From the IMG/VR virus record IMGVR_UViG_3300044765_000177, positions 1 to 60,040 of that record: a DNA stretch of 60,040 nt, one strand, 5' to 3'. The notes beneath the pieces are model-generated. The model was not told the DNA's origin. It saw nothing but the letters and a program-made list of their open reading frames with translations, and searched no databases. The stretch comes from a virus. Numbering within the stretch: position 1 is the first letter of the stretch; every line of letters starts with the position of its first letter. Made by a program: the position numbers and the translations under genes. Positions 1,468 through 60,040 of this stretch are shown piece by piece.

Positions 1468-1701
1468 TTAGCTTTCGGCGATGGACTGGCGGAGCTGGTC
1501 GAGCATCTGGGTGGCCTTCGCGGCGGCGTCGGCCTGGGCGGTGTCGGGCAGTTGGGAGATCGCCGAGCGGAGCTGGTCCATGGCGACCGCCAGGACCGCG
1601 GCCGGTCCTTTCGTCTCCGCCTGCCGGCGACGCTCGCCGAGGAACTCGGCGGATCGGGCCTGTCGCAGAGCCTTGCGGGACGGGCGGCTGGCGGTCGCCA
1701 C
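1468..1701 (-). CDS. Small helical hypothetical protein (77 aa)
   Basis: ORF track; GTG at 1701 preceded by GAAGGAGGA. Confidence 0.7.
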   Translation of the reverse strand: MATASRPSRKALRQARSAEFLGERRRQAETKGPAAVLAVAMDQLRSAISQLPDTAQADAAAKATQMLDQLRQSIAES

Positions 1702-5332: not shown

Positions 5333-5432
5333 CCCTTGGTGTCGACTTTGCATGCTCTGGAGTCAACCGGCGCCACAACGAAGCTGCCATGACCGACCGA
5401 TGCAGCGCCGGTGCACCCGGAGTGCAGTCGTG

Positions 5433-6107: not shown

Positions 6108-6553
6108 CCGACACGACCACCGAGAAGCCCGGCATCTCCGCCGCGATCATCGTGGTCGGCGAGCGCGTGTTGATGGTGCGGCGCCGCATCTCCGAGGGCG
6201 AGCTGATGTGGCAATTCCCCGCCGGCGCCATCGAGCCGGGCGAGACGCCAGAGGAGGCGGCCGTGCGGGAGACCCTCGAAGAGACCGGCCTCGAGGTCAA
6301 GGCCATCCGGCTGCTGGGCGACCGGGTTCATCCGAAGACCCAGCGGGTCATGTCGTATACGGCCTGCGAGGCGGTGGCCGGTGAGGCGCGCGTTGCCGAC
6401 GCCGAGGAGCTGACGCAGATCGCCTGGGTGACGCACCGCGACCTGCCGGACTACGTGCCTTACGGGATCTTCGACAAGGTGCAGGAGTACCTGGACGCCA
6501 CCCTGACCCGGTCGCCGGACTACATCACGATCTTGTCGGAGCCGGTCGAGTAG
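6104..6553 (+). CDS. Nudix hydrolase with a canonical Nudix box (149 aa)
   Basis: ATG 6104 overlaps the upstream stop (ATGA); box GAIEPGETPEEAAVRETLEETGL matches Gx5Ex7REUxEExGU. Confidence 0.9.
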   Translation: MTDTTTEKPGISAAIIVVGERVLMVRRRISEGELMWQFPAGAIEPGETPEEAAVRETLEETGLEVKAIRLLGDRVHPKTQRVMSYTACEAVAGEARVADAEELTQIAWVTHRDLPDYVPYGIFDKVQEYLDATLTRSPDYITILSEPVE

Positions 6554-11739: not shown

Positions 11740-12446
11740 GCGGCGCTCCTCCGGCGGTCGTTGCCCTTCATGGCCACGCGCTCGCACATCTCAGCGAGGC
11801 GGGAAATGACGCGGTCACCGAGGCGGCCGGCGAGTTCCTTCGGCTCGACGTTGGATGTCATGAGGGTGGGCAGGTGGCGCTCGTAGCGGTAATTGATCAG
11901 CCGGAAGTTGACCTCCTCGGTGAACTCGGTGGGCTTGCGCTCGGCGCCGAGGTCGTCGACGAGGAGGAGGCGGGCGTCGCGGTACTTGCGGAACTCGGCT
12001 TCGGAGTCGATGCCGTGGCGGGGCCGGAGGGCGGCGTACAGGTCGGCGGCGGTGGTCACCTGCCACTGGCCGTACACGCCGGCGATGGACAGCTCCCGCA
12101 TGGCGCCGTAAGCCTCGTGAGTCTTGCCGACGCCGGTGGCTCCGAGGAGCAGCAGCGAGGGGCCGTGGGTGATGCTGGCGATGGGGCTGCCGCGGTCGGC
12201 CTGGGCTTCGCGCGCGGCCTCGATGAGGGTGTCGATCCAGGCGCGCAGCTGGGGCAGGGTGGCAACGGCGCTGCGGTAGTGGAACGGGACCTTGGCCATG
12301 GTCTCGAGGTAGGTGTTGCGGGCGACGTTCGCGGTGCTGTGCGGGTCGAAGTCGTGGTCCTGGATCCAGTCGGGGTCGAGGCCGCGGCTGGCGAGGAGCG
12401 GGGCGAGGTCGTGGCCTCGGAGGCTGCTGGGCGGGATGTACTGCAT
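11736..12446 (-). CDS. DnaC/IstB-like AAA+ helicase loader (236 aa)
   Basis: Walker A GATGVGKTH, Walker B LLLVDDLG; sits directly upstream of the helicase gene. Confidence 0.85.
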   Translation of the reverse strand: MQYIPPSSLRGHDLAPLLASRGLDPDWIQDHDFDPHSTANVARNTYLETMAKVPFHYRSAVATLPQLRAWIDTLIEAAREAQADRGSPIASITHGPSLLLLGATGVGKTHEAYGAMRELSIAGVYGQWQVTTAADLYAALRPRHGIDSEAEFRKYRDARLLLVDDLGAERKPTEFTEEVNFRLINYRYERHLPTLMTSNVEPKELAGRLGDRVISRLAEMCERVAMKGNDRRRSAA

Positions 12447-13273
12447 CAGAAGTCCTCGTCGTAGACGGATTGGTCGGTGGGGTTGCGGTAGGGCTCGTAG
12501 CCGCCGGAGACGGCGCGCAGCGGGGGGCGTCCATTGGGGTCCGGCGCGGGCGCGAACTTGTCCTCGTAGCGGCGTTCGCGGATCCAGTTGGCGGACTGCT
12601 TGATGAAGCGGAACTCCTGGCCGGCCATCTCTCGGGCGTAGGCCAGGGCGGCAGCGGAGATGGCGACGGGGTCGGCTCCGGCAAGGATGGCTTCGGTCCA
12701 GGCCTCGAGGGTCCGGTCGTAGTCCTTGCTCTTGGGGTGGTTGTGCCAGAAGCGGCCGAACTCCAGCTTCTCCTCGCTGCTGATCTGGCGGCCGGGAGCT
12801 CCAGCAGAAGCTTCTTCATCTACGTGGTTGCTGTGGTTCTGGTTATGGGGTCCGGTAGCCGGACCCCTAGAGGTCCGGTTTTCGGACCCCTGGGGTCCGG
12901 TAGCCGGACCCCTAGCGTTTTGCTTAGAGGTCCGGTTTTCGGACCCCTGGCCCTCGCCTAGAGGTCCGGTAGCCGGACCCCTAGAGGTGAAGTCGGGGCG
13001 CACGAAACCGACCGCCCCAGGGATCTTGTAGAGCGCCGCACGTGTGCCTCGCCCCTGCTCCAGCAGGTTCAGCTCACCGCTCTTGACGAGAGCATCGATG
13101 GCGGTGATGACGGACGATCGGGCGGCGTTGCTGAAGCGCACCAGCTCCGCGGTGCTGACCCGTGCCAAGCCGTCGTCGCCGGTGATCCGGTTGGCGATCG
13201 CCAGCATGACGTGCCGTCCGGCCCCCTTTGACTGGGAGTGGAGCCAGACCCAGTACATGGCGTCGATGCTCAC
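12446..13273 (-). CDS. Replication initiator-like protein: N-terminal winged-helix, repeat-containing linker, C-terminal domain (275 aa)
   Basis: ORF track; position upstream of loader and helicase; N-terminal wHTH-like segment; linker encoded by the iteron array. Confidence 0.7.
   Translation of the reverse strand: MSIDAMYWVWLHSQSKGAGRHVMLAIANRITGDDGLARVSTAELVRFSNAARSSVITAIDALVKSGELNLLEQGRGTRAALYKIPGAVGFVRPDFTSRGPATGPLGEGQGSENRTSKQNARGPATGPQGSENRTSRGPATGPHNQNHSNHVDEEASAGAPGRQISSEEKLEFGRFWHNHPKSKDYDRTLEAWTEAILAGADPVAISAAALAYAREMAGQEFRFIKQSANWIRERRYEDKFAPAPDPNGRPPLRAVSGGYEPYRNPTDQSVYDEDF
12849..12984. repeat. Five palindromic 22-nt repeats inside the initiator gene; candidate origin iterons
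   Basis: GGTCCGGTAGCCGGACCCCTAG at 12849, 12894, 12963; GGTCCGGTTTTCGGACCCCTGG at 12872, 12929; adjacent lower-G+C stretch at ~12800-12848. Confidence 0.6.
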
Positions 13274-15978: not shown

Positions 15979-16950
15979 CTAGTCGACGAGCTCGCCCTCG
16001 ACGGGCTCGTCGTCGTTGGTGTCGCTGACCTCGGCGTCCATGCGCTCGGCGATCGCCATGAGCTGCTTGGACAGTTCGTCGCGGCCCTTCGGGTCGACGT
16101 GACCGGCGGCGCGGGCCTTCCTCCAGACGTCGCGAACGTCGTCCGAGGTGAGCGCGCCTTCCGCCTCGGCCAGGTAGTCGGGCCGGAGCGCCTCGATGGC
16201 GGCCACGGCTTGACTGCCGGACGGGTCCAGGGCGAGCGCGGTCGGCAGCGGCCCGGTGAGCGCCTGGCGCGGGGTGATGCCGCGGACCTCGACGACCACC
16301 ACGGGGAAGTGCTTCGTCTGGCCGCCTGCCACCCTGGTGCGCGGTTCGATCCGCAGGCTGACCGGGACGAGACCCTTGCCCTCGGTGCCGGACAGCACCA
16401 TGTCGACGGTGCCGCCCCACTCGTTGGCCGCGTAGAAGCTGTGCGTCTCGGCCCGCCACACGCCGACGTCCGGCATGTCGGGGAGGATCACGTTCAGGCG
16501 GGAGGTGGCGGCGCAGACCTTGTCCTTGCGGTACTGGTCCTGCCGCAGCAGGTGCCAGTCCTCACCGAACTCGGCCAGGCACAGGCAGGGCATGCGCGAG
16601 ATCTGCTCGGTCTGCCCGTCGCAGCGGCGCTGGCAGCCGCCCTTGGTCCACATCTCGTTGTACTGGTTCAGCGGGTCACCGGGCGGGAGGAGGGCGTCGA
16701 TCTGCTCCGCCTTGGTGATCACGCGGAACTGGGGAGCGCCGTTGCCCTGGGGCTGCCAGCGTTCGACGTCGCCGCCCCAGGCTTCGGCGGCGGCCTGCGC
16801 GTAGTGCTCGGCGTGGGAGGTGACCACCCACGTCTTGGACTTGACCGGGCGGGCCCGCTTGTCGGGGTCGGGGTTCGGCACGGACCAGCCGGTGCGGAGC
16901 CGGCCGAGTTCGCGGGCCTGGCGCTGGAGGGTGATGATGCGGGAGCCCAT
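15979..16950 (-). CDS. Conserved-looking early protein with a Cys cluster (CQRRCDG...PCLC...C), adjacent to the exonuclease; possible recombination partner (323 aa)
   Basis: ATG 16950 overlaps the exonuclease stop; function not assignable by eye. Confidence 0.8.
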   Translation of the reverse strand: MGSRIITLQRQARELGRLRTGWSVPNPDPDKRARPVKSKTWVVTSHAEHYAQAAAEAWGGDVERWQPQGNGAPQFRVITKAEQIDALLPPGDPLNQYNEMWTKGGCQRRCDGQTEQISRMPCLCLAEFGEDWHLLRQDQYRKDKVCAATSRLNVILPDMPDVGVWRAETHSFYAANEWGGTVDMVLSGTEGKGLVPVSLRIEPRTRVAGGQTKHFPVVVVEVRGITPRQALTGPLPTALALDPSGSQAVAAIEALRPDYLAEAEGALTSDDVRDVWRKARAAGHVDPKGRDELSKQLMAIAERMDAEVSDTNDDEPVEGELVD

Positions 16951-22695: not shown

Positions 22696-22898
22696 GACTT
22701 CTCCTCGTGAGTTATGTCGGCGGGGGTGACACCCAGCGCCTCCGCGAGCTTCCGGATGTTCTCGTCGCTCAGGCCGGCCTTGCCGTTCTGGACCTTCGAC
22801 AGGTGTGTCTTGTCGATGCCGGTTCGTTCCGAGAGCATTGCAAGGCTCATCTGCAGAGCCTCCCGTCTGAAGCGGATTGCGCTGGAGTGCGGTCTCAC
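22692..22898 (-). CDS. Cro/C1-type XRE HTH regulator, Cro-like (68 aa)
   Basis: LQMSLAMLSERTGIDKTHLSKVQNGK; divergent from the CI-like gene. Confidence 0.85.
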   Translation of the reverse strand: MRPHSSAIRFRREALQMSLAMLSERTGIDKTHLSKVQNGKAGLSDENIRKLAEALGVTPADITHEEKS

Positions 22899-22940
22899 GC
22901 CTCAGAACGTAGCCGGACGAGAGCGTGGATGCAATCCCTC

Positions 22941-23069
22941 AGAGAGCCTTTTTGGCTACTCGCCAGAGCCTCGCTAGCTACTCAGGAGAGCCTTGGTGGC
23001 ACAGGCGAGGACTCACGGACCGGAACGCGTAGTGCGCCCCATGCAACCCAAACGCTCCCTTTGAGAGCC
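22941..23069. promoter_or_regulatory. Genetic-switch operators: AGAGCC-N5-(G/A)GC repeats at exact 22-bp phasing (AGAGCC at 22943, 22965, 22987) plus a looser copy at 23064
   Basis: Repeats read directly in the 238-nt lower-G+C gap between the divergent Cro-like and CI-like genes. Confidence 0.6.
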
Positions 23070-23136
23070 CAAGTGCAGGTCAAACGGCTCAATCCCCGCT
23101 AGGTGGTTGCATGGATCTAGTGCATGATGGGGTTTC

Positions 23137-23676
23137 ATGGACCACGCCCGAGAGTGGGAACTCTCAGACTGGAAGCGACTGGGACGCGCGTTCGCCGCCC
23201 AGCGGGAAGAGGCCGGCTACACGCAGGTCAGTGCAGCCCAGGCACTCGGTGTCAGCCGAGGCCCGATCCAGGCCATCGAGCGCGGCCGCCAGGCGAACGG
23301 GCAGCCTTTCACCCGGGTCACGCAGACCATGCGCACCTACGCGCGCCTCCTCGGATGGACCGACACATCGCCGGCCAGAATCCTCGGCGGGGAGGAACCA
23401 GAACAGGCCACTCCCCCCGTTTCCCAGGAGGCGGCAGATGCCGCACCCGGAGTCCCGTCCGCCATCGACCGTGAGCTGCGGTCGGGCAGGACGCTGGACC
23501 ACACCGTCGTGCACCTCGGGGAGGAGGACGACGACGACACCCGGATCATCGTCGTGCTCAAGGGCTCGGACGACATCAGCGACGAGGAACTCGACGAGCT
23601 GTGGCTGAAGTGGCGCCGGGCTCGACGTCAGCTTCAGGCAATCCCAGGCGAAACGGACACCCCGTCAGACTCATGA
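23137..23676 (+). CDS. CI-like repressor: N-terminal XRE HTH, acidic C-terminal domain (179 aa)
   Basis: REEAGYTQVSAAQALGVSRGPIQAIERG; position and orientation. Confidence 0.8.
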   Translation: MDHAREWELSDWKRLGRAFAAQREEAGYTQVSAAQALGVSRGPIQAIERGRQANGQPFTRVTQTMRTYARLLGWTDTSPARILGGEEPEQATPPVSQEAADAAPGVPSAIDRELRSGRTLDHTVVHLGEEDDDDTRIIVVLKGSDDISDEELDELWLKWRRARRQLQAIPGETDTPSDS

Positions 23677-23771: not shown

Positions 23772-24176
23772 ATGTGGGTCATGCACGTTGAGCGTGTTGA
23801 GGGCGAGTACATAGAACCCGAGATCATCGATCTCGAAGACGGCAGCGGCTGCCTGTTCAGGCTGCACGCGACAGACATCGACGAGGACGGCCCGAAGTAC
23901 CTGGCCGACCTCCTCACCGACCAGGCGCAGCGCTGGGCCCCCCGCCCGCCTGGCTCGCCCCTGGGCCCCGTCATCCCCGTCACCTGGCTGCGGTCCCCCC
24001 TGGCGCACGACCGCTTCGCCATCGGCGTCGAGGACGGCCCGCACGCGATCGTGTACACGTGCCACCCGGATCTGATCAGCCAGCGGGCCGCGGACTATCT
24101 CAGCCGCCTCGACACGGAGCGCTCTCCGTACTGGCAGCGTGTACCCAAGGGCTACCACCACCGGGACGGCCGGTAG
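23772..24176 (+). CDS. Hypothetical protein between repressor and integrase (134 aa; start uncertain, track start 23715)
   Basis: ORF track 23715..24176; in-frame ATG at 23772. Confidence 0.65.
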   Translation: MWVMHVERVEGEYIEPEIIDLEDGSGCLFRLHATDIDEDGPKYLADLLTDQAQRWAPRPPGSPLGPVIPVTWLRSPLAHDRFAIGVEDGPHAIVYTCHPDLISQRAADYLSRLDTERSPYWQRVPKGYHHRDGR

Positions 24177-24195
24177 CCGAGCGCAAGGGGGCACG

Positions 24196-25539
24196 ATGGC
24201 CTACGCCGAGAAGGTCTACAAGGTCAAGAACGGCAAGCAGACCAAGCAGTACACCTGGCGGGCCCGCTACAAGCGGCCGGACGGCACCTGGGGCAGCGAG
24301 CCCGGATTCCCGACGAAGACGCTGGCCAAGGAGTGGGGCGAGCAGCAGGAAGCCGCCATCCGGTCCGGCACGTGGATCGACCCGGAGAAGGCGCGCACCA
24401 AGTTCGGCGAGTGGGTGCAGATGTGGAAGACGGCCAACGTCAAGCGGCCCCGCACCCAGAGCAGTCGCGCCTACCTCCTGGACAAGCTGCTGCTGCCGGA
24501 GTGGGAGCACACCCCGCTGCAGGAGGTCAACAACGTCTTCGCCGTGAAGGCGTGGGCGACCCGGGCGGCCAAGCCGAACGGCAAGCACGACCCGGACACC
24601 GTCGCGCAGGCCCGGAGCCTGCTGTCGACGATCCTGTCCGGCGCCGAGGACGCCGGGTACATCCCGGCCAACAAGCTGTACGGGCGGCGCATCCTCGTCG
24701 GCGACGGGCACCACGAGGAGGAAGAGGAGGTGTGGGCGCAGCCCGACGAGATCTACCGCATCTACCAGCGCCTGAGCGGGGTGCACGCGCTCATGCCGCT
24801 GGCGGACTGCTATCTGGGGCTGCGCTGGGGCGAGCTCGCCGGCCTGCACCGCGACAACTGCCTCCTCAAGCGCGAGGAGAGGATCGACGGCAAGCCGTTC
24901 GTGCGGCACGTCGTCCGGGTGGACGCGAAGACCGGGTCGCTGCACGAGGACACCTTCGAGCTCGACGCCGACGGCCTGGAGGAGTGGCACCGGGCGGAGG
25001 ACGCCCGCCTCGAGGAGTACCGGGCCAAGGGGTGGAAGGCCAACCGGCGCAAGCCGCCCAAGAACATCGTGAAGCTGTACCTGGGGCCGCCCAAGAACAA
25101 GTACTCGGCGCGCGAGGTGGACGTCCCGGAGTTCCTGGTGCGCCTGCTCGCCGAGCACATCGAGGCGTGGCCGCACGAGCATCCGTTCTCCACGCCGGGC
25201 GGGCAGTTCTGGCGGCGCGGCAACTTCACGCGCGCCCAGCTGCGGCCCGCGGCCGACGGGCGGGAGGCGGTCCCCCGCAAGCGCGGGTTCGCCGGCCGGG
25301 AGGCGTGGGAGCCGATCCTGCCGGGCTTCACGATGCGCGGGGCCCGGCACACCCACGACACGTGGATGAAGGACGACGGGGTGGACAGGGCGCTGCGGTT
25401 CTTGACGATGGGGTGGGTGCCGAAGGACATTGAAGGGACCTACGAGCACGTGACGCCGGAGATGCGCAGGCACCGACTGCGGAGTCTGGAGGCGCGGTGG
25501 GAGCGCGGGATGCGGGTGGCGTCCCGGGCCGCACGGTGA
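24196..25539 (+). CDS. int: Tyrosine integrase (447 aa)
   Basis: ATG 24196; LGLRWGE (Arg), RGARHTHDTW (box II), EGTYEHV (Tyr); adjacent to the attP-like tRNA fragment. Confidence 0.9.
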   Translation: MAYAEKVYKVKNGKQTKQYTWRARYKRPDGTWGSEPGFPTKTLAKEWGEQQEAAIRSGTWIDPEKARTKFGEWVQMWKTANVKRPRTQSSRAYLLDKLLLPEWEHTPLQEVNNVFAVKAWATRAAKPNGKHDPDTVAQARSLLSTILSGAEDAGYIPANKLYGRRILVGDGHHEEEEEVWAQPDEIYRIYQRLSGVHALMPLADCYLGLRWGELAGLHRDNCLLKREERIDGKPFVRHVVRVDAKTGSLHEDTFELDADGLEEWHRAEDARLEEYRAKGWKANRRKPPKNIVKLYLGPPKNKYSAREVDVPEFLVRLLAEHIEAWPHEHPFSTPGGQFWRRGNFTRAQLRPAADGREAVPRKRGFAGREAWEPILPGFTMRGARHTHDTWMKDDGVDRALRFLTMGWVPKDIEGTYEHVTPEMRRHRLRSLEARWERGMRVASRAAR

Positions 25540-27359: not shown

Positions 27360-27474
27360 GCCAGCAAAGCCAGCCGCAGCCCGACGGCCGGGAGGTAGGG
27401 TTCGGGAAACAGTACGGCCCTCGCAGGTGCTACCAACACCAAGCGAGGGCCTGACCAGAGGAGTAGTGGTCCTC

Positions 27475-28074
27475 ATGGCTGCGCATCAGCCTACCCTTCG
27501 CGACCTGCCCAGCAAGTCTCCGGCCGGCTCATACGTCTACGTCCTCACCTTCAGCACGGGGATCATCAAGGTCGGATACACGGGCAATCCACGGCTTCGC
27601 CTCACCGCGTATCGCACCTCGCTCAGCCCTTTCGGGATCTCCATCGTCGACTACTGGTTCTCCGACCCGCACAGCGAAGCCGCGACCGGCGAGGCGGAGC
27701 TGTTGGACTTCTGCCGCCGGCAGGGGCGCCCCGTCAACGGCGGCGAGTACTTCACGCACATCGACTTCAGAGCCGTCGTCTCGTTCGCACGCACGTTGCC
27801 CTGTACGCCCGCCGACGTTCCGCCGGTTGCAGCGGCCGAGGCCCCGGCGAGCAGCACCCCCTGGAAGCAGGTGGCCGAGGTGATCCGGCAGCGGATCGCG
27901 GACGGCACGTACCCGCCTCGGACGCGCGTCCCCTCGGTCATCCAGCTGGCGACGGAGTTCGGGATCGCGCAGGCCACCGCGCAGAAGGTGCACCGCGGGC
28001 TCCGCGAGGAGGGCCTCATCTACACGGAGCCGGGCCTCGGGTCGTTCGTGAAGGCGCAGCCGCCCGGCTCGTAG
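27475..28074 (+). CDS. Fusion protein: N-terminal GIY-YIG-like T5orf172 domain + C-terminal GntR wHTH (199 aa)
   Basis: YVYVLTFSTGIIKVGYTGNPRLRLTAYR...GEYF, then WKQVAEVIRQRIADGTY...PSVIQLATEFGIAQATAQKVHRGL. Confidence 0.75.
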   Translation: MAAHQPTLRDLPSKSPAGSYVYVLTFSTGIIKVGYTGNPRLRLTAYRTSLSPFGISIVDYWFSDPHSEAATGEAELLDFCRRQGRPVNGGEYFTHIDFRAVVSFARTLPCTPADVPPVAAAEAPASSTPWKQVAEVIRQRIADGTYPPRTRVPSVIQLATEFGIAQATAQKVHRGLREEGLIYTEPGLGSFVKAQPPGS

Positions 28075-29629: not shown

Positions 29630-30649
29630 TCAGAGGCCGATGTCTTCGCTGGCGGCGTCGGTCCACTTGTCGGCTTCGCGGATGTAGCCCCAGAAGGCGG
29701 GGCTGTTTTCGGCGTGGCCGGACTGTTCGCGGATCTTCTCTTCGCGCTTCCCGGCCCGGCGCGACGTGGTGATGAACCCGGCCCGCATGGAGTGGCCGGT
29801 GAGGCGGACGGCGAGTCCGGCGCGTTCGGCGTTGCGGGCGATGATCTCGCGGACGGCTTCGGCGGAGAGTGCGCGGTCGCCGAGGCGGCCGTGGACGGTG
29901 ATGGGCAGGAAGGCGGGGCCGGTGGTGATGCCTGCGGCGGCGCGCCAGGTGAGCCAGGCGCGGACGGGGCAGGTGTCGGGGTTTTTGCCGTAGCCGACGA
30001 CGACGTCGCGGGGCGGGCGGCCCTTGACGGCGGGCACGTGGACTTCGAGGCCTTGGCTGACGTGGATGATGCCGTCGGCGCGGAGGGCGGCGACTTCGGC
30101 GGAGCGTCCGGCGATGGCGAAGGCCATGAGCCAGAGGGCGCGGTCGCGGAGGCCGGTGAGTCCGTCGGCGACGGCGGCGTTCATCTGGCGCAGCTGTTCG
30201 GGCGTGACGGCGGCAGCTTTGCCCCGGCCGCGCGCCTGCCGTTCGGGGTCGTTCTTGAGCGGCTTGAGGGCTTGCCGGGCGGCGACGGTGGCGGCCTTGG
30301 GGACTTCGACGCCGTGCTCGTTCCGGGCGGTGACGGTGACACCGGTGATCCTGCGGTCGATGCTGTTGGGCGCGGCGAGCTTGATGGTGTCGAGCCAGAC
30401 GACGAACCCGACGAGCGTCCCCTTGGTGACGGCGGTGGACGGCAGGCGGCTGCCGGTGCGTTCGGCGAGCCAGTCGTGGAACTGCTCCCAGAGTGCCCAG
30501 TCGTTGGCGTAGCCGCGCTTGGTGTTGTGGGGGCGGATGGCGTCGAGGTGCTTCTCGGCTGCCCCTTCCATGGCGTGCAGGACGGCGAGCGTCGCAGCGT
30601 CGTAGGCGGCGGGGGCGGCGTCAGGCTGGCGCGGGATGAGCGCGGTCAT
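29630..30649 (-). CDS. Cre/Xer-like tyrosine recombinase without an obvious arm-binding domain (339 aa)
   Basis: AGRSAEVAALR (Arg), GHSMRAGF (HxxR), FWGYIRE (Tyr); Cre-like N-terminal helical core. Confidence 0.85.
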   Translation of the reverse strand: MTALIPRQPDAAPAAYDAATLAVLHAMEGAAEKHLDAIRPHNTKRGYANDWALWEQFHDWLAERTGSRLPSTAVTKGTLVGFVVWLDTIKLAAPNSIDRRITGVTVTARNEHGVEVPKAATVAARQALKPLKNDPERQARGRGKAAAVTPEQLRQMNAAVADGLTGLRDRALWLMAFAIAGRSAEVAALRADGIIHVSQGLEVHVPAVKGRPPRDVVVGYGKNPDTCPVRAWLTWRAAAGITTGPAFLPITVHGRLGDRALSAEAVREIIARNAERAGLAVRLTGHSMRAGFITTSRRAGKREEKIREQSGHAENSPAFWGYIREADKWTDAASEDIGL

Positions 30650-51796: not shown

Positions 51797-53536
51797 TCAG
51801 AATCCGACCGCCACCCGGCTCTTCGCCTTCGGCCGCCGCAGGTATCCGTCCAGACCCATCACCGTCGCCGCGATCCCGTCGATGCGGGCCTGGCTCTTGC
51901 GCCGGTCCGGCTTCGTGGGCCGGTAGTTGTCGTTGCCGTCCGCGATCGTCTCCACGCAGCCGGCCATCCACCGCAGGATCGGATGCCCGCCGTGCCGGAA
52001 CCTCTGCTCCAGCAGTAGCCGGTCCAGCTCCTTGCATGCGGGCGACAGCCCGAGGAACGTCTGGCTGATCGGCGTCACCTTCACGCCGCGCCGTGTCTCC
52101 CGGTCCACGTTCTGCACGAGCTGCCCGGCGAACATCCGGTCGTAGCCGATCCACTGCACGTCGAAGTGCTTGCAGTCCGCCAGCACTTGCTTCTCGATCG
52201 CGTCGTAGTCGATCGCATCGCCCTCGGTCAGCTTCAGGAAGCCCTCACGGGCCCACTGCGCCAGCGGCACCTGCAGATGCCGCTGCAGATCCTCGAGCCG
52301 CTCCGACGGCAGCCAGAACCTGGAGACCAGCTCGACCTCGACGCCAGGCTGCTTCGACTCCACCGCCAGCACCCAGGCGCTGAGGTCCGACACTGCGGAC
52401 AGGTCCAGGCCGCCCCACGCCCGTCGGCCCCTCAGCGTCTCCGCGTCCACCATTCCCGCCACCCGGTCCCAGGACCGGACGTCGATCCAGCGGGTCGACG
52501 CCTTCTCGCGGATGTTCAGCGACAGCCGAAGGAACGTCGGAAAGTACGAGGGCGTAGCCTGCGCCTTGCCCGCCTCGCGCCGCAGATACGCCAGCGTCGG
52601 CGACGTGCCGAGGCCCGGGTTCGCGCGGCGCCAGGTCCGCTCGTCGAACGGGTCATCGGTCTCATCTGCGGCCCAGATCACGCCGTAGTGCGCCGGATCC
52701 TCCACGACGTGCTCGGCGACCTTGCGGGTGTAGCTGTGCTTCTCGTCGTAGATCGAGCCCTCTTGCGCGTCATCCGCGGTCGTGATGTACACGATCAGCG
52801 GCTGATCCCGCGCACCGGTGCCCGTCTCGATCGCGTCGATCAGGTCCCGGCTCTTGTGGACGTGGACCTCGTCGATCACCGCGCCCGAGACGTTCAGGCC
52901 GTGCGCCGTCTCCGCGATCCGCGACAAGGCCCGGAAGACCCCTCCCGTCCGCGGCACCCGGATCACCGAGGTGAGCACCTCGGCGCGGCCCTTCACCGCC
53001 TTCGACGTCTGCGCCATCCGCTTCGCGTCGTCGAACACCCGCTTGGCCTGCTCCAGCGAGCCGGCCGCCGCATACACCTCGGCACCCGTCTCGCGGTCCG
53101 CGAGCAGCAGCGTCAGGCCGATCCCCGAGGAGAGCGTGCTCTTGCCGTTCTTCCTGGGAATCTCGATCCAGCACGAGCGCACCACCCGCACCGGCCGGTC
53201 CAGCTCCGGGTCATGCCACAGCCAGCCGAACACCGGCAGAATCACCCACAGCTTCTGCCAGCCGGCCAGCCGCAGGAACGTGCCGCCCCACCGGCCCTTG
53301 GTGTGCTTGAACGACTCGATAGCCCGCAGCGCCCGCCGGGCGGCATCCACGTCGAACCAAGCACCCGCCTGCTCCGGCATCTGGAACGCCGACACCAGCG
53401 GCCGGGACAACAGAGCGTCGGCGATCTCCTCGTCCGGCATACCCAGCGCGTGCAAGGCCGCCCGGGGAACGGGCAGACCCTCCTCACGGTCCTGCGCGGA
53501 GAGCTGCTCAGTCGAAGGGGTCGTCTTCGTCGCCAT
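51797..53536 (-). CDS. Terminase large subunit (579 aa; alternative GTG 53545)
   Basis: Walker A-like EIPRKNGKST, VIDEVH; ATG 53536 after GGAGGG. Confidence 0.9.
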   Translation of the reverse strand: MATKTTPSTEQLSAQDREEGLPVPRAALHALGMPDEEIADALLSRPLVSAFQMPEQAGAWFDVDAARRALRAIESFKHTKGRWGGTFLRLAGWQKLWVILPVFGWLWHDPELDRPVRVVRSCWIEIPRKNGKSTLSSGIGLTLLLADRETGAEVYAAAGSLEQAKRVFDDAKRMAQTSKAVKGRAEVLTSVIRVPRTGGVFRALSRIAETAHGLNVSGAVIDEVHVHKSRDLIDAIETGTGARDQPLIVYITTADDAQEGSIYDEKHSYTRKVAEHVVEDPAHYGVIWAADETDDPFDERTWRRANPGLGTSPTLAYLRREAGKAQATPSYFPTFLRLSLNIREKASTRWIDVRSWDRVAGMVDAETLRGRRAWGGLDLSAVSDLSAWVLAVESKQPGVEVELVSRFWLPSERLEDLQRHLQVPLAQWAREGFLKLTEGDAIDYDAIEKQVLADCKHFDVQWIGYDRMFAGQLVQNVDRETRRGVKVTPISQTFLGLSPACKELDRLLLEQRFRHGGHPILRWMAGCVETIADGNDNYRPTKPDRRKSQARIDGIAATVMGLDGYLRRPKAKSRVAVGF

Positions 53537-54017
53537 CGTCGCCACCCTCCGGCGGCGTCAGCCGGCCACGCGCGGACGGTGACAGGCCCAGCTCGCCGAT
53601 GTACCGGGCCAGTTGCTGCCGGTACTGGCCCACCACCGTCGTCGCGCCGTTCTTCTGCCAGCCCCGTTCGCCCCTCATCAGCAGCCCGTGCAGGGAGATT
53701 TCCCGCTCGCACTGGTCGATCCGGGCGACACAGATGCAGTAGTCGGTGACGGTCTGGGTGTCGACCTCGGCCAGGCCTGCCGTGAACTTGAGCACCGGGA
53801 CCACGCGGCGCCACTCGCGGCGGGCGATCTCCCGGCAGCGCGCGTTGATCTCCCGCTGCCGGTCATCGCCGCGGACGGCCGGGAACGATTCGAGCCAGTT
53901 CGGCTCGGCCAGCTCCGATGGGGGGAGCTTGACGCCCTCGCGGACAGGCCGGCGGTTCGGGTTGCCCTCGCGGACGATCTGGAGAGGGGGCTTCGGCTTT
54001 CTCCCGGCGACTGCCAC
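53508..54017 (-). CDS. Terminase small subunit, P27-like (169 aa; track start 54068 has poor codon bias)
   Basis: GRKPKPPLQIVREGNP...; GTG 54017. Confidence 0.75.
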   Translation of the reverse strand: MAVAGRKPKPPLQIVREGNPNRRPVREGVKLPPSELAEPNWLESFPAVRGDDRQREINARCREIARREWRRVVPVLKFTAGLAEVDTQTVTDYCICVARIDQCEREISLHGLLMRGERGWQKNGATTVVGQYRQQLARYIGELGLSPSARGRLTPPEGGDDGDEDDPFD

Positions 54018-54813: not shown

Positions 54814-55146
54814 TCAGACCCGGATGGCTTGGAGGGTGACCTCGGCGCTGGACACGTCGAAGTTGAGGGTGGTGCCGTAGTCGGTGGGCGGGAACGGGCC
54901 GAGCACCTGCGTCTCGCCGGCGGGGATGGACTCCTGCCTGGTGGGGCTGGTGAGTCCGTCGACGGTGCGCGCCGTCTGGAAGGTGATGGTGCGCGCCGTG
55001 CTGGCGCCGTTGGTGTTCTTGGCGATGAGGATGATGCGGCCGTCGTTGGCGATGGCGTTGCCGTTGGTGGCGTCTCCGGCGACGGCGGCGGGCAGTACGG
55101 CGCCCGCGCGGATGGCCTGGACGGCGTTGATCGTGGTGCGGGCCAT
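54814..55146 (-). CDS. Hypothetical beta-rich protein (110 aa)
   Basis: ORF track; ATG after AGGAG. Confidence 0.7.
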   Translation of the reverse strand: MARTTINAVQAIRAGAVLPAAVAGDATNGNAIANDGRIILIAKNTNGASTARTITFQTARTVDGLTSPTRQESIPAGETQVLGPFPPTDYGTTLNFDVSSAEVTLQAIRV

Positions 55147-55155
55147 GGGCTGCTC

Positions 55156-55443
55156 CTAGGTGACGGTGAGGATCCCGGCTCGGCGGACGATGTCCTCGGC
55201 TCCGGGCGGGTCGACGCGCACCCACACCTTGTAGTCGCCTGCGGTGAGGACGAGGTCGGCGCCGGGTCCGATGAGGATGCGGGCGGCCCCGTCGGCCCAG
55301 GCCGCGGTCTGCCACTCGTCCGCGGCCGGGTTGGCGCGGTGGGCGACGACGGCGATGTGGACGGGCGCGCCGGCCAGGTCGACACCGGCGGGGGCGGTGA
55401 CGGGTACGTGCAGGTATTCGGTGCTGCTGGCGGGGATCACCAT
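55156..55443 (-). CDS. Hypothetical Ig-like beta-rich protein (95 aa)
   Basis: ATG 55443 or GTG 55440 overlapping the upstream stop. Confidence 0.65.
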   Translation of the reverse strand: MVIPASSTEYLHVPVTAPAGVDLAGAPVHIAVVAHRANPAADEWQTAAWADGAARILIGPGADLVLTAGDYKVWVRVDPPGAEDIVRRAGILTVT

Positions 55444-56417
55444 GGCGCACCCACCTCCCACGCGCTGGGCTGGAGCTCGCCGACGGTGTAGACCGCGCCG
55501 TGCGGGGCGCCGACGGTGATGTCGATGTCCGTGTCCGGGCCTGCTGCGGCGAGCGGGCGCGCGGTGGCCTGCTCGACGGCCGGGCCGAGGACAGCGGTCT
55601 TGGCGCCCACGAGGGGCCGTGCGGTCTCAACGGCAGCAGCCGAGCTGAGGCTTCGGCTCAGCGCCGCCGTGAGGGCCTGCGCGCTCTCCGCCTCGGCTGC
55701 CGGGGCGAGCAGCGCGGTCTTCGTCCCCGCGAGGCCCTGCGCGGTCGCGGTCTCCGTGGCGATGCCGAGGACGGCAATTTTGCTGCCGACCAGAGCCTGC
55801 GCGGCCTCAACGGCTCCCGCGGTTCCGAGCTGGAGCGCCTTCGCCCCGGTGAGGGGCTGAGCGGTCTCGGCGCTGGCCGCGAGGGTGAGCGTCGCACCGG
55901 CGGTGATGTCGGCGGCGGCGAAGTTGTCGTAGCGGACGGCGGCGGACGACTCGGAGCGGATGCCGACGCTCGTGCCGGTGGGGACGTCGGTGTTGGTGAC
56001 GTTGACCCGTTCGACGCCGTTGACGAAGCCGCGGACGGTCGAGCCGACGGCCTGGACGCGCGCCACGTCGCCGGGGGCCGCAGCCGCCGTGTAGGAGCCG
56101 ATGACGAGGAAGCTGCCGCCGACGACCGCGAAGAGGTCCCAGGTGGAGCCGTTGTTTCGCCACAGGTAGCCCTGGCTGATGTTGGCGTTGCCCCTGCACC
56201 ACACGCCCTGGCTGACTGCGGCGGTGGAGACGATGGTGACCTGCGCGTAGTGGTCGCTGCTCGCCATGGCCGTGGCCGCGCGAAGGATGATCGTGCCGCC
56301 TGCGGAGCCCGGCGAAAGCTGCTGGGAGACGATCGACCAGTCGCCGGACACCTCCACCCAGCCGGCGCCGAGGTCGGTGGAGTCGGGGCGGTTGAAGTCG
56401 TCGGTAAAGCTCGCCAC
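55437..56417 (-). CDS. Protein with an N-terminal ConA/LamG-like lectin-type domain and a C-terminal array of ~19-aa Ala-rich repeats (326 aa)
   Basis: ORF track; repeats of the form AxExAQxLxGxKxAxL, about six copies. Confidence 0.75.
   Translation of the reverse strand: MASFTDDFNRPDSTDLGAGWVEVSGDWSIVSQQLSPGSAGGTIILRAATAMASSDHYAQVTIVSTAAVSQGVWCRGNANISQGYLWRNNGSTWDLFAVVGGSFLVIGSYTAAAAPGDVARVQAVGSTVRGFVNGVERVNVTNTDVPTGTSVGIRSESSAAVRYDNFAAADITAGATLTLAASAETAQPLTGAKALQLGTAGAVEAAQALVGSKIAVLGIATETATAQGLAGTKTALLAPAAEAESAQALTAALSRSLSSAAAVETARPLVGAKTAVLGPAVEQATARPLAAAGPDTDIDITVGAPHGAVYTVGELQPSAWEVGAPW
55487..55850 (-). repeat. In-frame tandem coding repeats (~57 nt unit, about six copies)
   Basis: Seen in the translation of 55437..56417; boundaries approximate. 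Confidence 0.6.
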
Positions 56418-56432
56418 GACGCCCCCAGGCCG

Positions 56433-56879
56433 CTATGCCGCCGAGGTGCTGCGGTAGAAGTCGGAGATCGACAGGGTGAAGTTGCTGCCGTCGGGCGTCC
56501 AGGTCAGGTCGTGCTTGGTGAGGGGGATCAGGTCGGCGTCGGTGCCCGTGGTGGTGTCGGGGTCGTAGCAGATGACCACTGCGCCGACCGGGTTGCCGGT
56601 GGGCGCGGTCCAGGTGACGTCGGCTGCGTCGACGGCGACGCGGTCGTTGGTGTCGTCGACGGTGACCGTGACACCCGACAGGGTCTTGCGGCCGACGGTG
56701 GTCTGCTCGTTCGTCGTCCCGGCGACCACGTCGGCGAGGGTGTCCTTGTCGCGCAGCACCGCGTCCGACTCCAGCCCGCTGGCCTCCAGCGCGACGAGGA
56801 CGAGGCCGTCGTTGGCGGCGGGCAGGGAGGCGTAGTAGGCGACCATGCCCAACGCCCGGTTGAAGACGATGTTCGCCAT
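56433..56879 (-). CDS. Hypothetical beta-rich protein (148 aa)
   Basis: ATG 56879 within track ORF 56433..57182. Confidence 0.7.
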   Translation of the reverse strand: MANIVFNRALGMVAYYASLPAANDGLVLVALEASGLESDAVLRDKDTLADVVAGTTNEQTTVGRKTLSGVTVTVDDTNDRVAVDAADVTWTAPTGNPVGAVVICYDPDTTTGTDADLIPLTKHDLTWTPDGSNFTLSISDFYRSTSAA

Positions 56880-56947
56880 CGGGGCCTCCTCGGCGGCGGG
56901 TTGGTGGAGCCCCGCCGCCCGGACGGGGTCGACGGGCGGCGGGGAGC

Positions 56948-57175
56948 TCAGGCGGCGCGGGCGCCTTCGGGCAGCGGCGGTGCCTGTCCGGGCGCGAGCT
57001 GCTCTCGCGTGTACTCGTCGCGGGGGGCTTTGATCAGGTCGAACACGTAGTAGCGGGCCTGTCGGCCCGTGCCGGTCTTCCGGATGCGGCCCTCGGAGGC
57101 CCAGCGCCAGATAGTGCCCACGGGCACGCCCGCGTAATAGGCTGCATCGGCGGCGGTGACGTAGCCGGGAGGCAT
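56948..57175 (-). CDS. Excisionase-family (HTH_17) DNA-binding protein at the head of the late operon (75 aa)
   Basis: VTAADAAYYAGVPVGTIWRWASEGRI; ATG 57175 after GGGGAGGTG. Confidence 0.75.
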   Translation of the reverse strand: MPPGYVTAADAAYYAGVPVGTIWRWASEGRIRKTGTGRQARYYVFDLIKAPRDEYTREQLAPGQAPPLPEGARAA

Positions 57176-57311: not shown

Positions 57312-57500
57312 TCAGCGGTCGAGGCGCCGCGTGACGACGGCGCCGCCAACGACGGCGATCACGATGTACACCGCCAGCCCGATCAACATGCGGCCGGTGC
57401 TCGGATCTCCGGGCAGCGCGATCAGGGCGAGAGCGATCACACCGAGGATGAGCGGGGCGAGAATCGTGTACAGCCAGTACAGGGAGTGGTAGCGCTCCAT
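57312..57500 (-). CDS. Small two-TM membrane protein (62 aa)
   Basis: ATG 57500 after AAGGAG; hydrophobic helices. Confidence 0.7.
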   Translation of the reverse strand: MERYHSLYWLYTILAPLILGVIALALIALPGDPSTGRMLIGLAVYIVIAVVGGAVVTRRLDR

Positions 57501-57511
57501 CGGGTGCTCCT

Positions 57512-57952
57512 TCAGTGCCGGTGGTTGGTCTTGGCGAAGAGCCCGGTCGTCTTGCTCTGCACGGTCCGCTGGTCGACGGGCCCGTTGTAGTGGTGGTGGT
57601 GCACGTCCGGGACCGCGGTGGCCGTCCGGCGCACGAGCCGGGCCAGGGCGAGGATCGGCACGGCGACCGCAGCAGGGGCCGCGCAGATGAGGCCGATGAC
57701 GGTGGGGTCGGCGTGCTCGGAGGCGACCAGGATCGCCGTGGCGACGAGGCCGGGCGGCACGGATGCCAGGCTGCAGTACATGACGGCCCGGCTGATCTCG
57801 GTGGCCTTCTGCGACATGGCCGGCGCTCCGGGCTGCTGAACGGGGGGCGTCGGGCCGTAGGCCGGCAGGGGGGTGTCGTCGCGGTAGGAGGTGGGCGGGC
57901 ACATGGCCTCTTCCACGGCGGCGACGAGCTTCGGGTCAGGCTGGACGGTCAC
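57512..57952 (-). CDS. Membrane protein directly downstream of the translocase gene, Spd-like position (146 aa)
   Basis: GTG 57952 after AGGAG; two hydrophobic helices; the rest of track ORF 57512..58687 overlaps the translocase gene and is junk. Confidence 0.7.
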   Translation of the reverse strand: MTVQPDPKLVAAVEEAMCPPTSYRDDTPLPAYGPTPPVQQPGAPAMSQKATEISRAVMYCSLASVPPGLVATAILVASEHADPTVIGLICAAPAAVAVPILALARLVRRTATAVPDVHHHHYNGPVDQRTVQSKTTGLFAKTNHRH

Positions 57953-57960
57953 GGGGGCTC

Positions 57961-59973
57961 CTAGGCTGCTTCGGCGAGGTCGGCGGGGGTGTCTGCGTGG
58001 TCGGGGTGGGCCCAGATGCCGCGGTCGACGGCGACAGCCAGGTCTTTGGCCTTGAGGCGGGTGAGGGCGTTCTTCACGGCGCTGACGGTGAGTCCGGTCT
58101 CCTGGGCGATGGTGTTGCGGCCGACGGGGCGGCCCCGTTCGGCGAGGAACGCGGCGACACGCTCGTCGGTGCCGGGGGGCGCTTCGGCTGCGATGGCAGC
58201 GGCGGCCCGGGCGATGGGGTCGCTGGACGGAACCATGCGGGCTGGGGCGGTGGGGCCATCGGCGAAGGCGTCGTCGGGCAGCACGGGGGTTTCGCCGCGG
58301 AGGCGGGCGGCGAGCCGGTCGAGGCGCTCGTGGTATGCCTTGCCGCAGACGGCGGCGGCGGACGGCTCGATGGTGGGGGTGTCGCCGGTGGTGGCCCAGT
58401 GGGCGGGGTCGCGGTCGAAGTAGGCGCGGAACTGGGCCTGCCGGTTGTCGGGGCCCTTGATGTAGCCGAGGCCGGCGGTGGACGTCTTGTCGGGCCAGTA
58501 CATGGGCAGCTGGCTGGGGTTGACGTCCCAGCCGGGCAGGCCGATGGAGTCGGTGAGCGTGGACGCGGTGCGGAACATGACGGTGTTGCCGGACTGGGCC
58601 TGCTCGCGGATGTCGGTGGACTCGGGGGCGTTGCCGAACATGTTGGCCTTGGGACCCTGGAACACGAGGCGGATCTTGATGCCGCACTTGCGGGCCATCT
58701 GGATGATCTCCAGGACGAGCGCGGGGGCGCCCGGCAAGTTGAGGACGCGGTGCGCCTCGTCGATGGTGACGGAGATCAGCGGGTCGGGGTCGCCGACGAC
58801 GAAGTGGTCGCGGCCGCGCAGCCGGCGGCCCTTATGGTCGGTCCACTCCATCATCGAGTAGCGGGCGGACCGCTCGTACATGACGTTGCGGACGGCGTGG
58901 AGCATGGCGAGGCCGCCCTGGGCGGTGTCCTCGTACCAGTCGACGGCCTCACGCCAGCGGGGCAGGGACTGTCCGCCCTGCGGGTCGCACACCCAGGAGA
59001 CGATGCCGTTGTGGCGTTCGGTGCCGAGCAGCATGTCGAGGAACCGGGACTTGCCGCCGTCGGTGGCGCCGTAGACGACGGTGTGGACGGGCCCGGACGG
59101 CTTCCAGAACGCGTAGTGGGCGGGGGCGCCGTCGTAGAACAGGCCGACGGTGGCCTGCCCGGTGGCGGTGTTGAGGATCTGGGGGCCGGGGTGGTCGACG
59201 GGCTTCTGCAGCGGGTTGCGGTCGAACACGGCGATGATGGCGCGCTTCGCGGACTGGCCGGTCGCCTTCTCGATCTGCAGCATCTCCTCGGGCAGGTCGA
59301 GGGCGCCGGCGATGTCGGCGGCGGCGGAGTGGGCCTGACGCCAGTTCCTGCGGCAGATGATGACGCCGGTCCAGCCGTAGCCGGTGGTGACGACGTCGAC
59401 GAGCTGGGAGCCGGGCAGGGGCCCGTCGGCGCAGGCGACGTCGTCCTGCCAGAGCTGCAGTTGCTTGCTGAGGGAAGGGGCCGGGGCGGCGGTCTTCTTG
59501 CCGCGGCGCCACCAGTAGATGCCGTGGCCGACGCCCCAGGCGACGCTGAGGGCCGGGTAGGGGCTGTCGCCGATCTGGAGTCCGCCGGTGGCGGCCATGG
59601 CGGTGACGAGGCTGCCGCCGGTGGTGACGGCGGAGGCGGCGGCGAGGAAGTCGCGGCGGGCGGGGAGCCGGCGGCGTAGGCGCTTCTTGCCGATGCGGGG
59701 GTTGCAGTAGCCCCAGACGGCGGTGGCTGCGGCGCCGGTGGCGGTGGCGGCGAGGGCGGTCTTCCAGCCGTCGTCGGGTACGGCGAGGGCGCTGCCGGCG
59801 ATGGCCTGGGCGGCGGTGGCGTAGAGGGGGGCCATGCCGCGGCGGGTGCGGTAGGCGAGGCGCAGCGCGCGCCGGGCGGCCTTGGTCTTGGGGTTGCGGG
59901 AGGAGCCGCGCTTGCGGGTCGTCGCACGGTCGTCGGTGCCGTTGGTCTTCTCGACGGTGATGGTCTTCGGCAT
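57961..59973 (-). CDS. traB: FtsK/SpoIIIE-family dsDNA translocase with TraB-like architecture: N-terminal TM helices, ATPase, C-terminal wHTH (670 aa)
   Basis: Walker A GATDGGKS, Walker B VTIDEAH; C-terminal NTIAQETGLTVSAVKNALTRLKAKDL. Confidence 0.88.
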   Translation of the reverse strand: MPKTITVEKTNGTDDRATTRKRGSSRNPKTKAARRALRLAYRTRRGMAPLYATAAQAIAGSALAVPDDGWKTALAATATGAAATAVWGYCNPRIGKKRLRRRLPARRDFLAAASAVTTGGSLVTAMAATGGLQIGDSPYPALSVAWGVGHGIYWWRRGKKTAAPAPSLSKQLQLWQDDVACADGPLPGSQLVDVVTTGYGWTGVIICRRNWRQAHSAAADIAGALDLPEEMLQIEKATGQSAKRAIIAVFDRNPLQKPVDHPGPQILNTATGQATVGLFYDGAPAHYAFWKPSGPVHTVVYGATDGGKSRFLDMLLGTERHNGIVSWVCDPQGGQSLPRWREAVDWYEDTAQGGLAMLHAVRNVMYERSARYSMMEWTDHKGRRLRGRDHFVVGDPDPLISVTIDEAHRVLNLPGAPALVLEIIQMARKCGIKIRLVFQGPKANMFGNAPESTDIREQAQSGNTVMFRTASTLTDSIGLPGWDVNPSQLPMYWPDKTSTAGLGYIKGPDNRQAQFRAYFDRDPAHWATTGDTPTIEPSAAAVCGKAYHERLDRLAARLRGETPVLPDDAFADGPTAPARMVPSSDPIARAAAAIAAEAPPGTDERVAAFLAERGRPVGRNTIAQETGLTVSAVKNALTRLKAKDLAVAVDRGIWAHPDHADTPADLAEAA

Positions 59974-60014
59974 GGCGGCTGCTACTCCTGCGGTGGGTGA
60001 AGTCTCGGGGTGGC

Positions 60015-60040
60015 GGCCCCGGCGCTGGGCCGGGGCCGCG
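60015..60040. repeat. Terminal direct repeat: identical to window positions 1-26
   Basis: Same 26-mer as at the window start. Confidence 0.9.

Follow-up and report, generated by a model that had tools for sequence, protein, structure and literature searches.

A TraB-like FtsK-family protein and its Tra/Spd-type gene cassette in a temperate Streptomyces phage genome

The translocase gene and its cassette

We analyzed the 60,040-bp DNA of IMG/VR virus record IMGVR_UViG_3300044765_000177, hereafter the window, which is a whole Joint Genome Institute (JGI) contig and the genome of a complete temperate Streptomyces siphophage. Close to its right end, the minus strand carries a gene for a protein of 670 amino acids (aa) whose homology and modeled fold support its placement among the TraB/Tra-type members of the FtsK family. 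This gene stands fifth in a seven-gene Tra/Spd cassette, in the order SpdB-type, p77, p155, p274, TraB-like, orf146 and orf62, of which the TraB-like protein is the predicted motor (Table 1). Its open reading frame (ORF) begins with ATG, with an AGGAG sequence 12 nucleotides (nt) upstream, and has a third-position GC content of 0.96.

An earlier reading made from the letters of the DNA alone (the sequence-only reading) had proposed a TraB-like domain order, with hydrophobic N-terminal helices, a Walker A/B ATPase core and a C-terminal winged helix, and all three parts were found. The Walker A motif GATDGGKS occupies residues 302 to 309 (nt 59047-59070) and the Walker B motif VTIDEAH residues 402 to 408 (nt 58750-58770). 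The catalytic positions K308, D330, E406, R428, Q439 and R468 were invariant in 13 homologues, with identities down to 26%. Because these positions are invariant and the family is large (see below), the features of the translocase are not attributable to chance.

An AlphaFold2 (AF2) model was built from a 30-sequence alignment and had a mean predicted local distance difference test (pLDDT) score of 78.7. At the C terminus, residues 602 to 655 were modeled as three helices followed by two beta strands (H602-613, H619-626, H630-642, E647-650 and E653-655); the C-terminal string NTIAQETGLTVSAVKNALTRLKAKDL spans residues 620 to 645. In profile searches, residues ~600 to 656 matched the winged-helix chains Z-alpha, PscE and PhiH1 repressor-like. 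Family matches were to MarR, DprA_WH and Z-alpha-type models, and no match to the FtsK-gamma family was obtained in Pfam-type and profile searches. At the N terminus, AF2 placed helices at residues 48-63, 69-89, 106-129 and 139-161, joined to the motor by a short connection, without a long linker. In 30 homologues, the flanking charges were +8 at the N terminus, -1 in loop 1, +5 in loop 2 and -1 in loop 3, followed by the sequence WWRR. As this conserved pattern fits the positive-inside rule, we propose a topology of four transmembrane (TM) helices with both ends inside (N-in/C-in), and insertion of this domain into the membrane is likely, judging from charges and model. The N-terminal helices of the sequence-only reading were thus recovered, while their hydrophobicity proved weak, as discussed below.

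Two small membrane-protein genes follow that of the translocase. They had been described as coupled genes placed as spd genes are behind traB in plasmids. orf146 starts with GTG 8 nt past the translocase stop codon and encodes two hydrophobic helices, with Kyte-Doolittle (KD) values of 1.7 and 2.5; orf62 starts with ATG 11 nt after the orf146 stop codon. Their two TM helices each, common strand and close spacing agree with that description, except that no start codon overlaps a stop codon. The analogy with plasmids was borne out by the orf146 product, which is 40% identical (E = 5e-31) to pZL12.70c, encoded directly downstream of an FtsK-like tra gene, and by the SpdB-type protein encoded upstream across the circular junction. 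In every close relative, orf146 followed the TraB-like gene. orf62 was found at 85-97% identity in loci L018 to L020 (L numbers denote the loci that we compared) and was absent in L004 and L006.

The four other cassette genes lie at the left end of the window, and p274 is directly upstream of the TraB-like gene across the junction of the closed circle. Its homologues precede the TraB-like gene in the plasmid locus L005 (31% identity) and in all relatives. The p155 protein is 40% identical to 155-aa proteins whose genes are equivalently placed in plasmid loci L002 and L005. It is the most constant partner of the TraB-like protein, being found with TraB homologues down to 31-36% identity, and it matched no PHROG or Pfam family. 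The order p77, p155, p274 directly upstream of the TraB-like gene is the same in L002 and L005, two Streptomyces plasmid loci, where the block is preceded by a gene for a DUF2637 (SpdB2-type) membrane protein. In the window, the block is preceded by the gene for the 363-aa SpdB-type protein, whose exact sequence has a precomputed match to PF27079 (HTH_SpdB_C). The C terminus of this protein aligned with pIJ101 SpdB (BLASTP E = 7e-6; hhalign E = 1.6e-5), and no match to it was found in deposited phages.

The operon is flanked on both sides by hairpins, and the HTH_17 gene, conserved in relatives, is the last gene before the downstream one. A scan for intrinsic terminators gave no match.

Table 1. 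Features of the cassette and of the phage genome that carries it (positions in the window; HTH, helix-turn-helix; wHTH, winged HTH)
Feature	Position (nt)	Strand	Basis or remark
TraB-like FtsK-family translocase, 670 aa	57961-59973	-	Profile, hhalign, AF2, Foldseek, plasmid homologues
Predicted membrane domain at the N terminus (residues 47-161) with four predicted helices, N-in/C-in	59491-59835	-	KD, AF2, charge pattern
FtsK/HerA-type ATPase motor, residues ~270-530	58384-59166	-	Motifs, homologues, profile, Foldseek
C-terminal wHTH	58009-58170	-	AF2, profile matches, pIJ101 Tra alignment
orf146, two TM helices, pZL12.70c homologue (phrog_19266)	57512-57952	-	PHROG E = 3e-36
orf62, two strongly hydrophobic helices, variable accessory operon member	57312-57500	-	KD 2.5, 2.7
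p274, bitopic membrane/coiled-coil protein	43-867	-	N-terminal TM, KD 1.72
p155, polytopic membrane protein, 4-5 TM	869-1336	-	TM segments
p77, small soluble helical protein	1468-1701	-	38-40% identity to syntenic L002 and L005 plasmid proteins
SpdB-type protein, 363 aa; four N-terminal TM, coiled coil, C-terminal HTH_SpdB_C	1893-2984	-	PF27079
HTH_17/excisionase-type DNA-binding protein	56948-57175	-	Pfam HTH_17 9e-6, TIGR01764 2e-4, phrog_2474
Perfect 12-bp-stem hairpin, terminator-like, without T tract	56910-56944	.	Inverted repeat I9, downstream of the HTH gene
11-bp-stem hairpin (I15), just upstream of the TraB-like gene, within the 26-bp terminal repeat	60013-60039	.
Packaging/head genes: TerS, TerL, SPP1-type portal, HK97-type capsid protein	51797-53545 (TerL)
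Tail genes: tail tube, tail fiber, 1471-aa ORF at tape-measure position			Tape-measure ORF assigned by position, not by family scan
Lysis genes: holin, endolysin
Integration genes: two tyrosine recombinases, Gp3-like directionality factor
Regulators: cI-like HTH gene, GntR gene
Lambda-style replication module: O-like initiator, DnaC-like loader, DnaB helicase; plus Pol III beta subunit
Further genes: C5 methylase, two NUDIX genes

Relatives of the translocase

Searches with the single translocase sequence gave no PHROG family and no PDB match to the motor. A profile of 13 homologues matched PDB chains of FtsK, EccC and HerA (E ~1e-7). The AF2 model was compared with known structures, as the sequence-only reading had proposed for the FtsK motor, and Foldseek placed it closest to TcpA, the conjugation coupling protein of pCW3 (2.8e-13), and to FtsK motor domains (5e-13, with a template modeling score on the target of ~0.6). 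Lower-ranked matches were EccC/EssC, VirB4 and HerA. Clustering with terminases or packaging ATPases, which had been named as the outcome that would speak against a TraB-like protein, was not seen. No terminase was among the best 50 Foldseek PDB matches listed, and A32-like proteins in BFVD matched at ~1e-5 or weaker, versus 1e-13 to 1e-23 for FtsK-like proteins. A terminase or packaging ATPase identity was rejected, since the phage has a separate TerL and the fold matches were FtsK and TcpA. Two BFVD entries, I4AZH4 and A0A4D6E4V2 (853 and 631 aa), aligned with the model in its full length, across 700-800 columns (E = 7e-23 and 1.5e-14, respectively), and may be further phage-borne TraB-like proteins.

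Comparison of the family with pIJ101 Tra by hhalign gave a probability (P) of 96.7% and an E value of 4.4e-10 over 414 aligned columns. The alignment was collinear and covered the pre-ATPase beta-domain, the motor and the C-terminal wHTH (query columns 176-661 versus 200-641 of 648). The link is at the profile level, with a plain hmmsearch score of 14.6 bits and without BLAST-level similarity. pIJ101 Tra itself scored 38.8 bits against the Pfam FtsK_SpoIIIE model (PF01580). The link between the translocase family and pZL12.71c, the FtsK-like Tra protein of pZL12, was visible by profile comparison only (hhalign, P = 89%).

The translocase family comprised 679 clusters (50% identity) at E <= 1e-30, and its more distant relatives (P0228-P0236) do have PF01580. 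By tblastn, homologues were found in 154 actinomycete plasmids (135 from Streptomyces), the best being 37-39% identical over 81-90% of the length. Some 70 proteins of 75-88% identity were present in Streptomyces genomes, some within contigs of 8.5-9.5 Mb and some on stand-alone ones of 56-65 kb. Distant homologues (29-33%) in IMG/VR contigs adjoin a lysin of the GH25 type, a tail spike similar to pectate lyases, or a GntR regulator with a serine recombinase. Among 50,697 deposited phages, no match to the translocase was found at E <= 1e-5 and FtsK-like matches were weak (E >= 4e-4); among those at E <= 5 were proteins annotated as FtsK-like translocases in Streptomyces phages (Hiyaavirus) and in phages of Bacillus and Geobacillus.

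The kinship with HerA raises the question of defense or exclusion: a membrane-bound ATPase of the FtsK/HerA type with a wHTH would benefit the lysogen by keeping out or expelling foreign DNA, such as that of superinfecting phages or plasmids. ATPases of the HerA/FtsK type belong to several defense systems, and HerA was among the PDB profile matches. PADLOC returned weak matches to mad8 (2e-4) and to the DpdF wHTH (2.5e-3), and both neighboring NUDIX genes match its candidate family PDC-S07. However, the PADLOC matches of the translocase were marginal and partial, its best structural matches were translocases and a conjugation coupling protein, and its partner genes are of the Spd type and belong to a plasmid-transfer cassette, not to the nuclease or effector kind. 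We consider such a role very unlikely.

The phage genome and conservation of the cassette

The two ends of the window are identical over 26 bases (1-26 and 60015-60040), and the contig closes to a circle of 60,014 bp. This closure is real and not an artifact, because homologues of the p274 gene adjoin the translocase gene upstream in related loci with near-equal spacing: the gap is 83 nt once the circle is closed, versus 79 nt in L004. The 26-bp terminal repeat forms a GC-rich hairpin. The identical sequence was assembled independently in Logan (SRR35359593, L059) and breaks at the same place, for which reason the hairpin, a likely terminator, also seems to be a point at which assemblies break.

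The element has 70% G+C, and its minus strand carries nearly all genes. The cassette is placed on the same strand as its surroundings, with the early replication genes on one side and the late packaging genes on the other. No tRNA was found in a tRNA scan, and the ~65 ORFs scanned included no genes for ParA/ParB or for other functions of plasmid maintenance. Two tyrosine recombinases (24139-25539, plus strand, and 29630-30649, minus strand) coexist in this phage with the Gp3-like recombination directionality factor (15979-16950, minus strand), a family best known from phages with a serine integrase. Between the HTH_17 gene and the HNH/TerS genes, four minus-strand genes (54814-56879), one with Ala-rich repeats, matched phrog_26662, 2804, 14065 and 38030 (virion structural, tail or no known function); a position upstream of the terminase is unusual for genes of the structural type.

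At least 12 close relatives of the TraB-like and SpdB-type proteins are encoded on separate contigs of 56-68 kb, a length close to that of the entire element, and others lie within chromosomal contigs of 8.5-12 Mb. The many element-sized contigs suggest that an excised or episomal form may be common in sequenced cultures. Such a form could call for a segregation helper similar to FtsK/SpoIIIE, which would clear or pump the excised or episomal phage genome into prespores at sporulation septation. The FtsK-like motor, the four N-terminal helices and the C-terminal wHTH as in FtsK fit this idea, as do the stand-alone contigs. Nevertheless, the ORFs scanned included no plasmid-maintenance genes, relatives sit inside chromosomal contigs, and the partner genes are of the Spd/transfer type. 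Of the explanations that we considered, segregation is the least probable.

We then compared the neighborhoods of related translocase genes. The block of the SpdB-type, p77, p155, p274, TraB-like and orf146 genes was syntenic in 11 GTDB species representatives and three IMG/VR contigs, and prophages of no fewer than 11 Streptomyces species thus share it. In these 14 loci, the cassette was intact and in the same position, with translocase identities of 74-90%, whereas the neighboring portal, TerL and TerS were 25-49% identical or undetectable. From this synteny and from the higher conservation of the cassette than of virion genes, it follows that, as far as sequence comparison can tell, the cassette is a stable core of a mosaic prophage family and not a recent insertion. 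All seven ORFs of the cassette were intact, with third-position GC contents of 0.88-0.96. The ratio of nonsynonymous to synonymous substitution rates (dN/dS) of the translocase was 0.29-0.52, indicating purifying yet not strict selection; these values are probably overestimated, because high-GC codon bias lowers dS.

These data bear on the possibility that the cassette is a decaying relic, or a nested fragment of a plasmid or of an actinomycete integrative and conjugative element (AICE), brought in by recombination and without a role for the phage. Phage genomes are mosaic, relatives of the cassette are found on plasmids, orf62 varies among relatives, and dN/dS reaches 0.5, all of which would be compatible with decay. 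Yet the ORFs are intact with high third-position GC, the catalytic residues are invariant, and the cassette keeps its position in at least 14 related loci of different species, where it is better conserved than virion genes. Moreover, no integrase or replication gene of its own adjoins it. A relic is highly improbable.

The sole strong repeat array of the genome (12849-12988) consists of five 17-bp palindromes, GGTCCGG(TAG or TTTT)CCGGACC, with a spacing of ~22-35 bp. It lies inside the O-like initiator ORF (12446-13273, minus strand), adjoining the DnaC-like and DnaB genes, and is most likely the phage replication origin, although it could in principle be a recognition site of another protein. 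It was set aside as a candidate clt locus, because its location in the O-like initiator gene makes it better read as an origin. Where the leftward early operon and the rightward cI-like HTH gene (23137-23676) diverge, the intergenic region has four to five CAGAGCCT-like motifs (22853-23070), which are probably operators of the lysis-lysogeny switch. The GntR regulator (27466-28074, plus strand) has a wHTH that is 37% identical over 67 residues to pIJ101 KorA, and several relatives (L009, L011, L025 and L028) have GntR homologues ~5 kb upstream of the TraB-like gene; this protein is a candidate Kor/TraR-type regulator of the cassette. The tandem NUDIX hydrolase genes (5400-6553) are on the plus strand, opposite to the cassette, and adjoin it in L004, L006, L010, L018 and L019. 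In the AICE pSAM2, the NUDIX protein Pif blocks redundant transfer.

Proposed function and comparison with known systems

The reading that we favor, with moderate confidence, is that the cassette encodes a TraB/Spd-type apparatus for translocation of double-stranded DNA (dsDNA) that acts on the phage genome. Its core would be a membrane-anchored, presumably hexameric ATPase that pumps dsDNA and chooses its substrate through the C-terminal winged helix. After excision or infection, the wHTH would bind the circular double-stranded phage genome at a putative cis site, and the membrane-embedded TraB ring would then pump the genome through. The Spd-like membrane proteins would aid its passage across hyphal membranes and septal cross-walls. 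As a result, the genome might enter a neighboring mycelium, in a conjugation-like transfer, and/or move between compartments within one mycelium, in a process of spreading, both routes dispensing with virions and with lysis. We propose this mechanism because of the established behavior of pSVH1 TraB and SpdB2 (PMC4447253; PMC3583192); part of its basis is the work of Vogelmann 2011 on TraB as summarized in PMC3583192. Thoma et al. considered that phage SpdB2 homologues might help phage DNA to spread.

Several observations weigh against a TraB/Spd-type apparatus. The translocase scored 14.1 bits against PF01580, below the cutoff of 24 (E = 0.03), and so did not pass the threshold used in AICE surveys, and its BLASTP comparison with pZL12.71c was not significant. 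Its N-terminal segments are rich in Ala, Gly and Thr, with KD maxima over 19 residues of 1.0-1.4, below the usual 1.6. In plasmids, the wHTH of TraB binds a cognate clt made of short direct repeats (8-bp TRS). No such array of repeats was found near the translocase operon by k-mer clustering, a repeat finder, a search for tandem repeats or 8-mer strand skew, no 8-mer was over-represented in the genome under a Markov model, and a sigma-70 promoter scan gave no match. As for the partners, orf146 and orf62 had no detectable similarity to characterized SpdA/SpdB proteins, including those of pIJ101, and a DUF2637 identity for the N-terminal membrane part of the SpdB-type protein was not supported, as this domain was not detectable. 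The dN/dS values of up to 0.5 indicate only moderate constraint. Finally, it is from homology, architecture and gene neighborhood that we infer the function of the translocase family.

A more ambitious proposal is that these chromosomally integrating, virion-producing temperate phages are also self-transmissible by dsDNA conjugation of the Streptomyces type, which would make them 'conjugative prophages'. We advance it tentatively and regard it as somewhat doubtful. The same machinery could serve as a device of the lytic cycle for spreading only, in which the pump and the Spd-like proteins carry replicating phage DNA across the septa of an infected mycelium and so enlarge the burst, without conjugation. 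The location of the cassette on the same strand, between early replication and late packaging genes, fits this alternative. In plasmids, moreover, Spd-type proteins are factors specific for intramycelial spread (PMC4447253), and an analogous module is present in Hiyaavirus phages, which come from soil and were obtained there as phages. On the other hand, TraB alone is the primary factor of intermycelial transfer in plasmids (PMC4447253), integrases and an excisionase-like gene are part of the element too, and pZL12 shows real conjugal transfer. Spreading alone is unlikely in our view, even though the two roles cannot be separated from sequence alone.

The propagation of phages in and between multicellular Streptomyces mycelia has been described as largely unknown (PMC11302927), and the phage and conjugative ways of life are usually taken to exclude each other (PMC12282955). 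The translocation apparatus that we favor may give the virus a second, particle-free way to travel. If it is true that this family transfers without virions, it would be a counter-example to that exclusivity, and the prophage family offers a genetically tractable system for asking whether one element uses both routes. What is new here is an integrating temperate phage family as the host of a full plasmid-type cassette including an SpdB-type protein, with plasmid genes as the nearest relatives of the cassette and with a translocase family that escapes PF01580 screens. The analysis also defines a large TraB-like family. Since the window protein lies below the threshold, such members would probably be missed by PF01580-based surveys of AICEs and conjugative elements.

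AICEs have been defined by an integrase whose gene lies at one end, a Tra protein and a replication protein of the RepSA, RepAM or Prim-Pol type (Ghinet et al. 2011). The element has tyrosine recombinases and, at the profile level, a Tra protein. Membership among AICEs was rejected, because the element has replication genes of the O-like, DnaC-like and DnaB type and because AICEs are devoid of the complete virion and lysis module that it carries. With chromosomal FtsK/SpoIIIE, the translocase shares the motor fold, a winged helix at the C terminus and, by prediction, four membrane helices at the N terminus; it differs in having neither a long linker nor an FtsK-gamma match and in its mobile-element locus with Spd-type genes.

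The sequence-only reading held that a membrane DNA pump is not something that phages normally need, a statement that was too strong in view of the Hiyaavirus FtsK-like translocases and of pZL12. Hiyaa gp102, Galactica gp99 and Spocter gp99 are FtsK-like proteins of ~700 aa with N-terminal hydrophobic segments, as in the window. In Galactica (L056, 65334-74392), two 'membrane proteins' (gp96 and gp98) and the 703-aa gp99 are encoded shortly before an HNH endonuclease gene, a layout that parallels that of the window. Identity to the window protein is 22-24% (22% for Galactica; tblastn E of 0.05-0.5), and hhalign related these proteins to the window family with P = 96.4%; this match ends at column 567, with no C-terminal wHTH aligned, and the membrane partners are unrelated to those of the window. 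Because Hiyaavirus phages hold this analogous, very distant module, an FtsK-like pump in a Streptomyces phage is not unprecedented.

With Tra/TraB pumps and membrane spread proteins, Streptomyces plasmids carry dsDNA from one hypha to another. In these pumps (pIJ101 Tra/KilA, pSVH1 TraB and pWTY27 TraA), a membrane region at the N terminus, an FtsK-type ATPase and a wHTH follow one another as predicted for the window protein. They are likewise flanked by small membrane spread genes, including one with an SpdB-type C-terminal domain. The profile-level homology to pIJ101 Tra extends across all soluble domains, and a GntR regulator is present in the window element too. The window protein is very divergent from these proteins, falling below the PF01580 threshold and lacking a detected clt array near its operon, and its gene belongs to a phage that has a complete virion and lysis module, and not to a plasmid or AICE.

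The closest full-length homologues (37-39% identity) belong to an uncharacterized cassette of large Streptomyces plasmids (such as CP106800 punmamed3 and the 292-kb plasmid of S. rimosus). This cassette has the same order of p77-like, p155-like, p274-like and TraB-like genes, preceded by one for an SpdB2-type (DUF2637) protein, and its proteins are annotated merely as 'hypothetical' or 'HTH domain-containing'. It comes without virion genes, and its upstream spread protein is of the DUF2637 type, whereas that of the window has PF27079 only.

The closest precedent is pZL12/phiZL12 (GQ919031). pZL12 is a 90-kb extrachromosomal plasmid with ParA/ParB, compared with the 60-kb element of the window, whose relatives are chromosomally integrated, and it reportedly has RepA and P1-like random ends. 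Unlike pZL12, the window element has two tyrosine recombinases, lambda-type replication and HNH/TerS packaging genes; the translocases of the two are remotely related, and the upstream cassette genes are not shared. Like the window element, however, pZL12 unites virion genes, an FtsK-like tra gene (pZL12.71c) and a pZL12.70c-family gene on one replicon.

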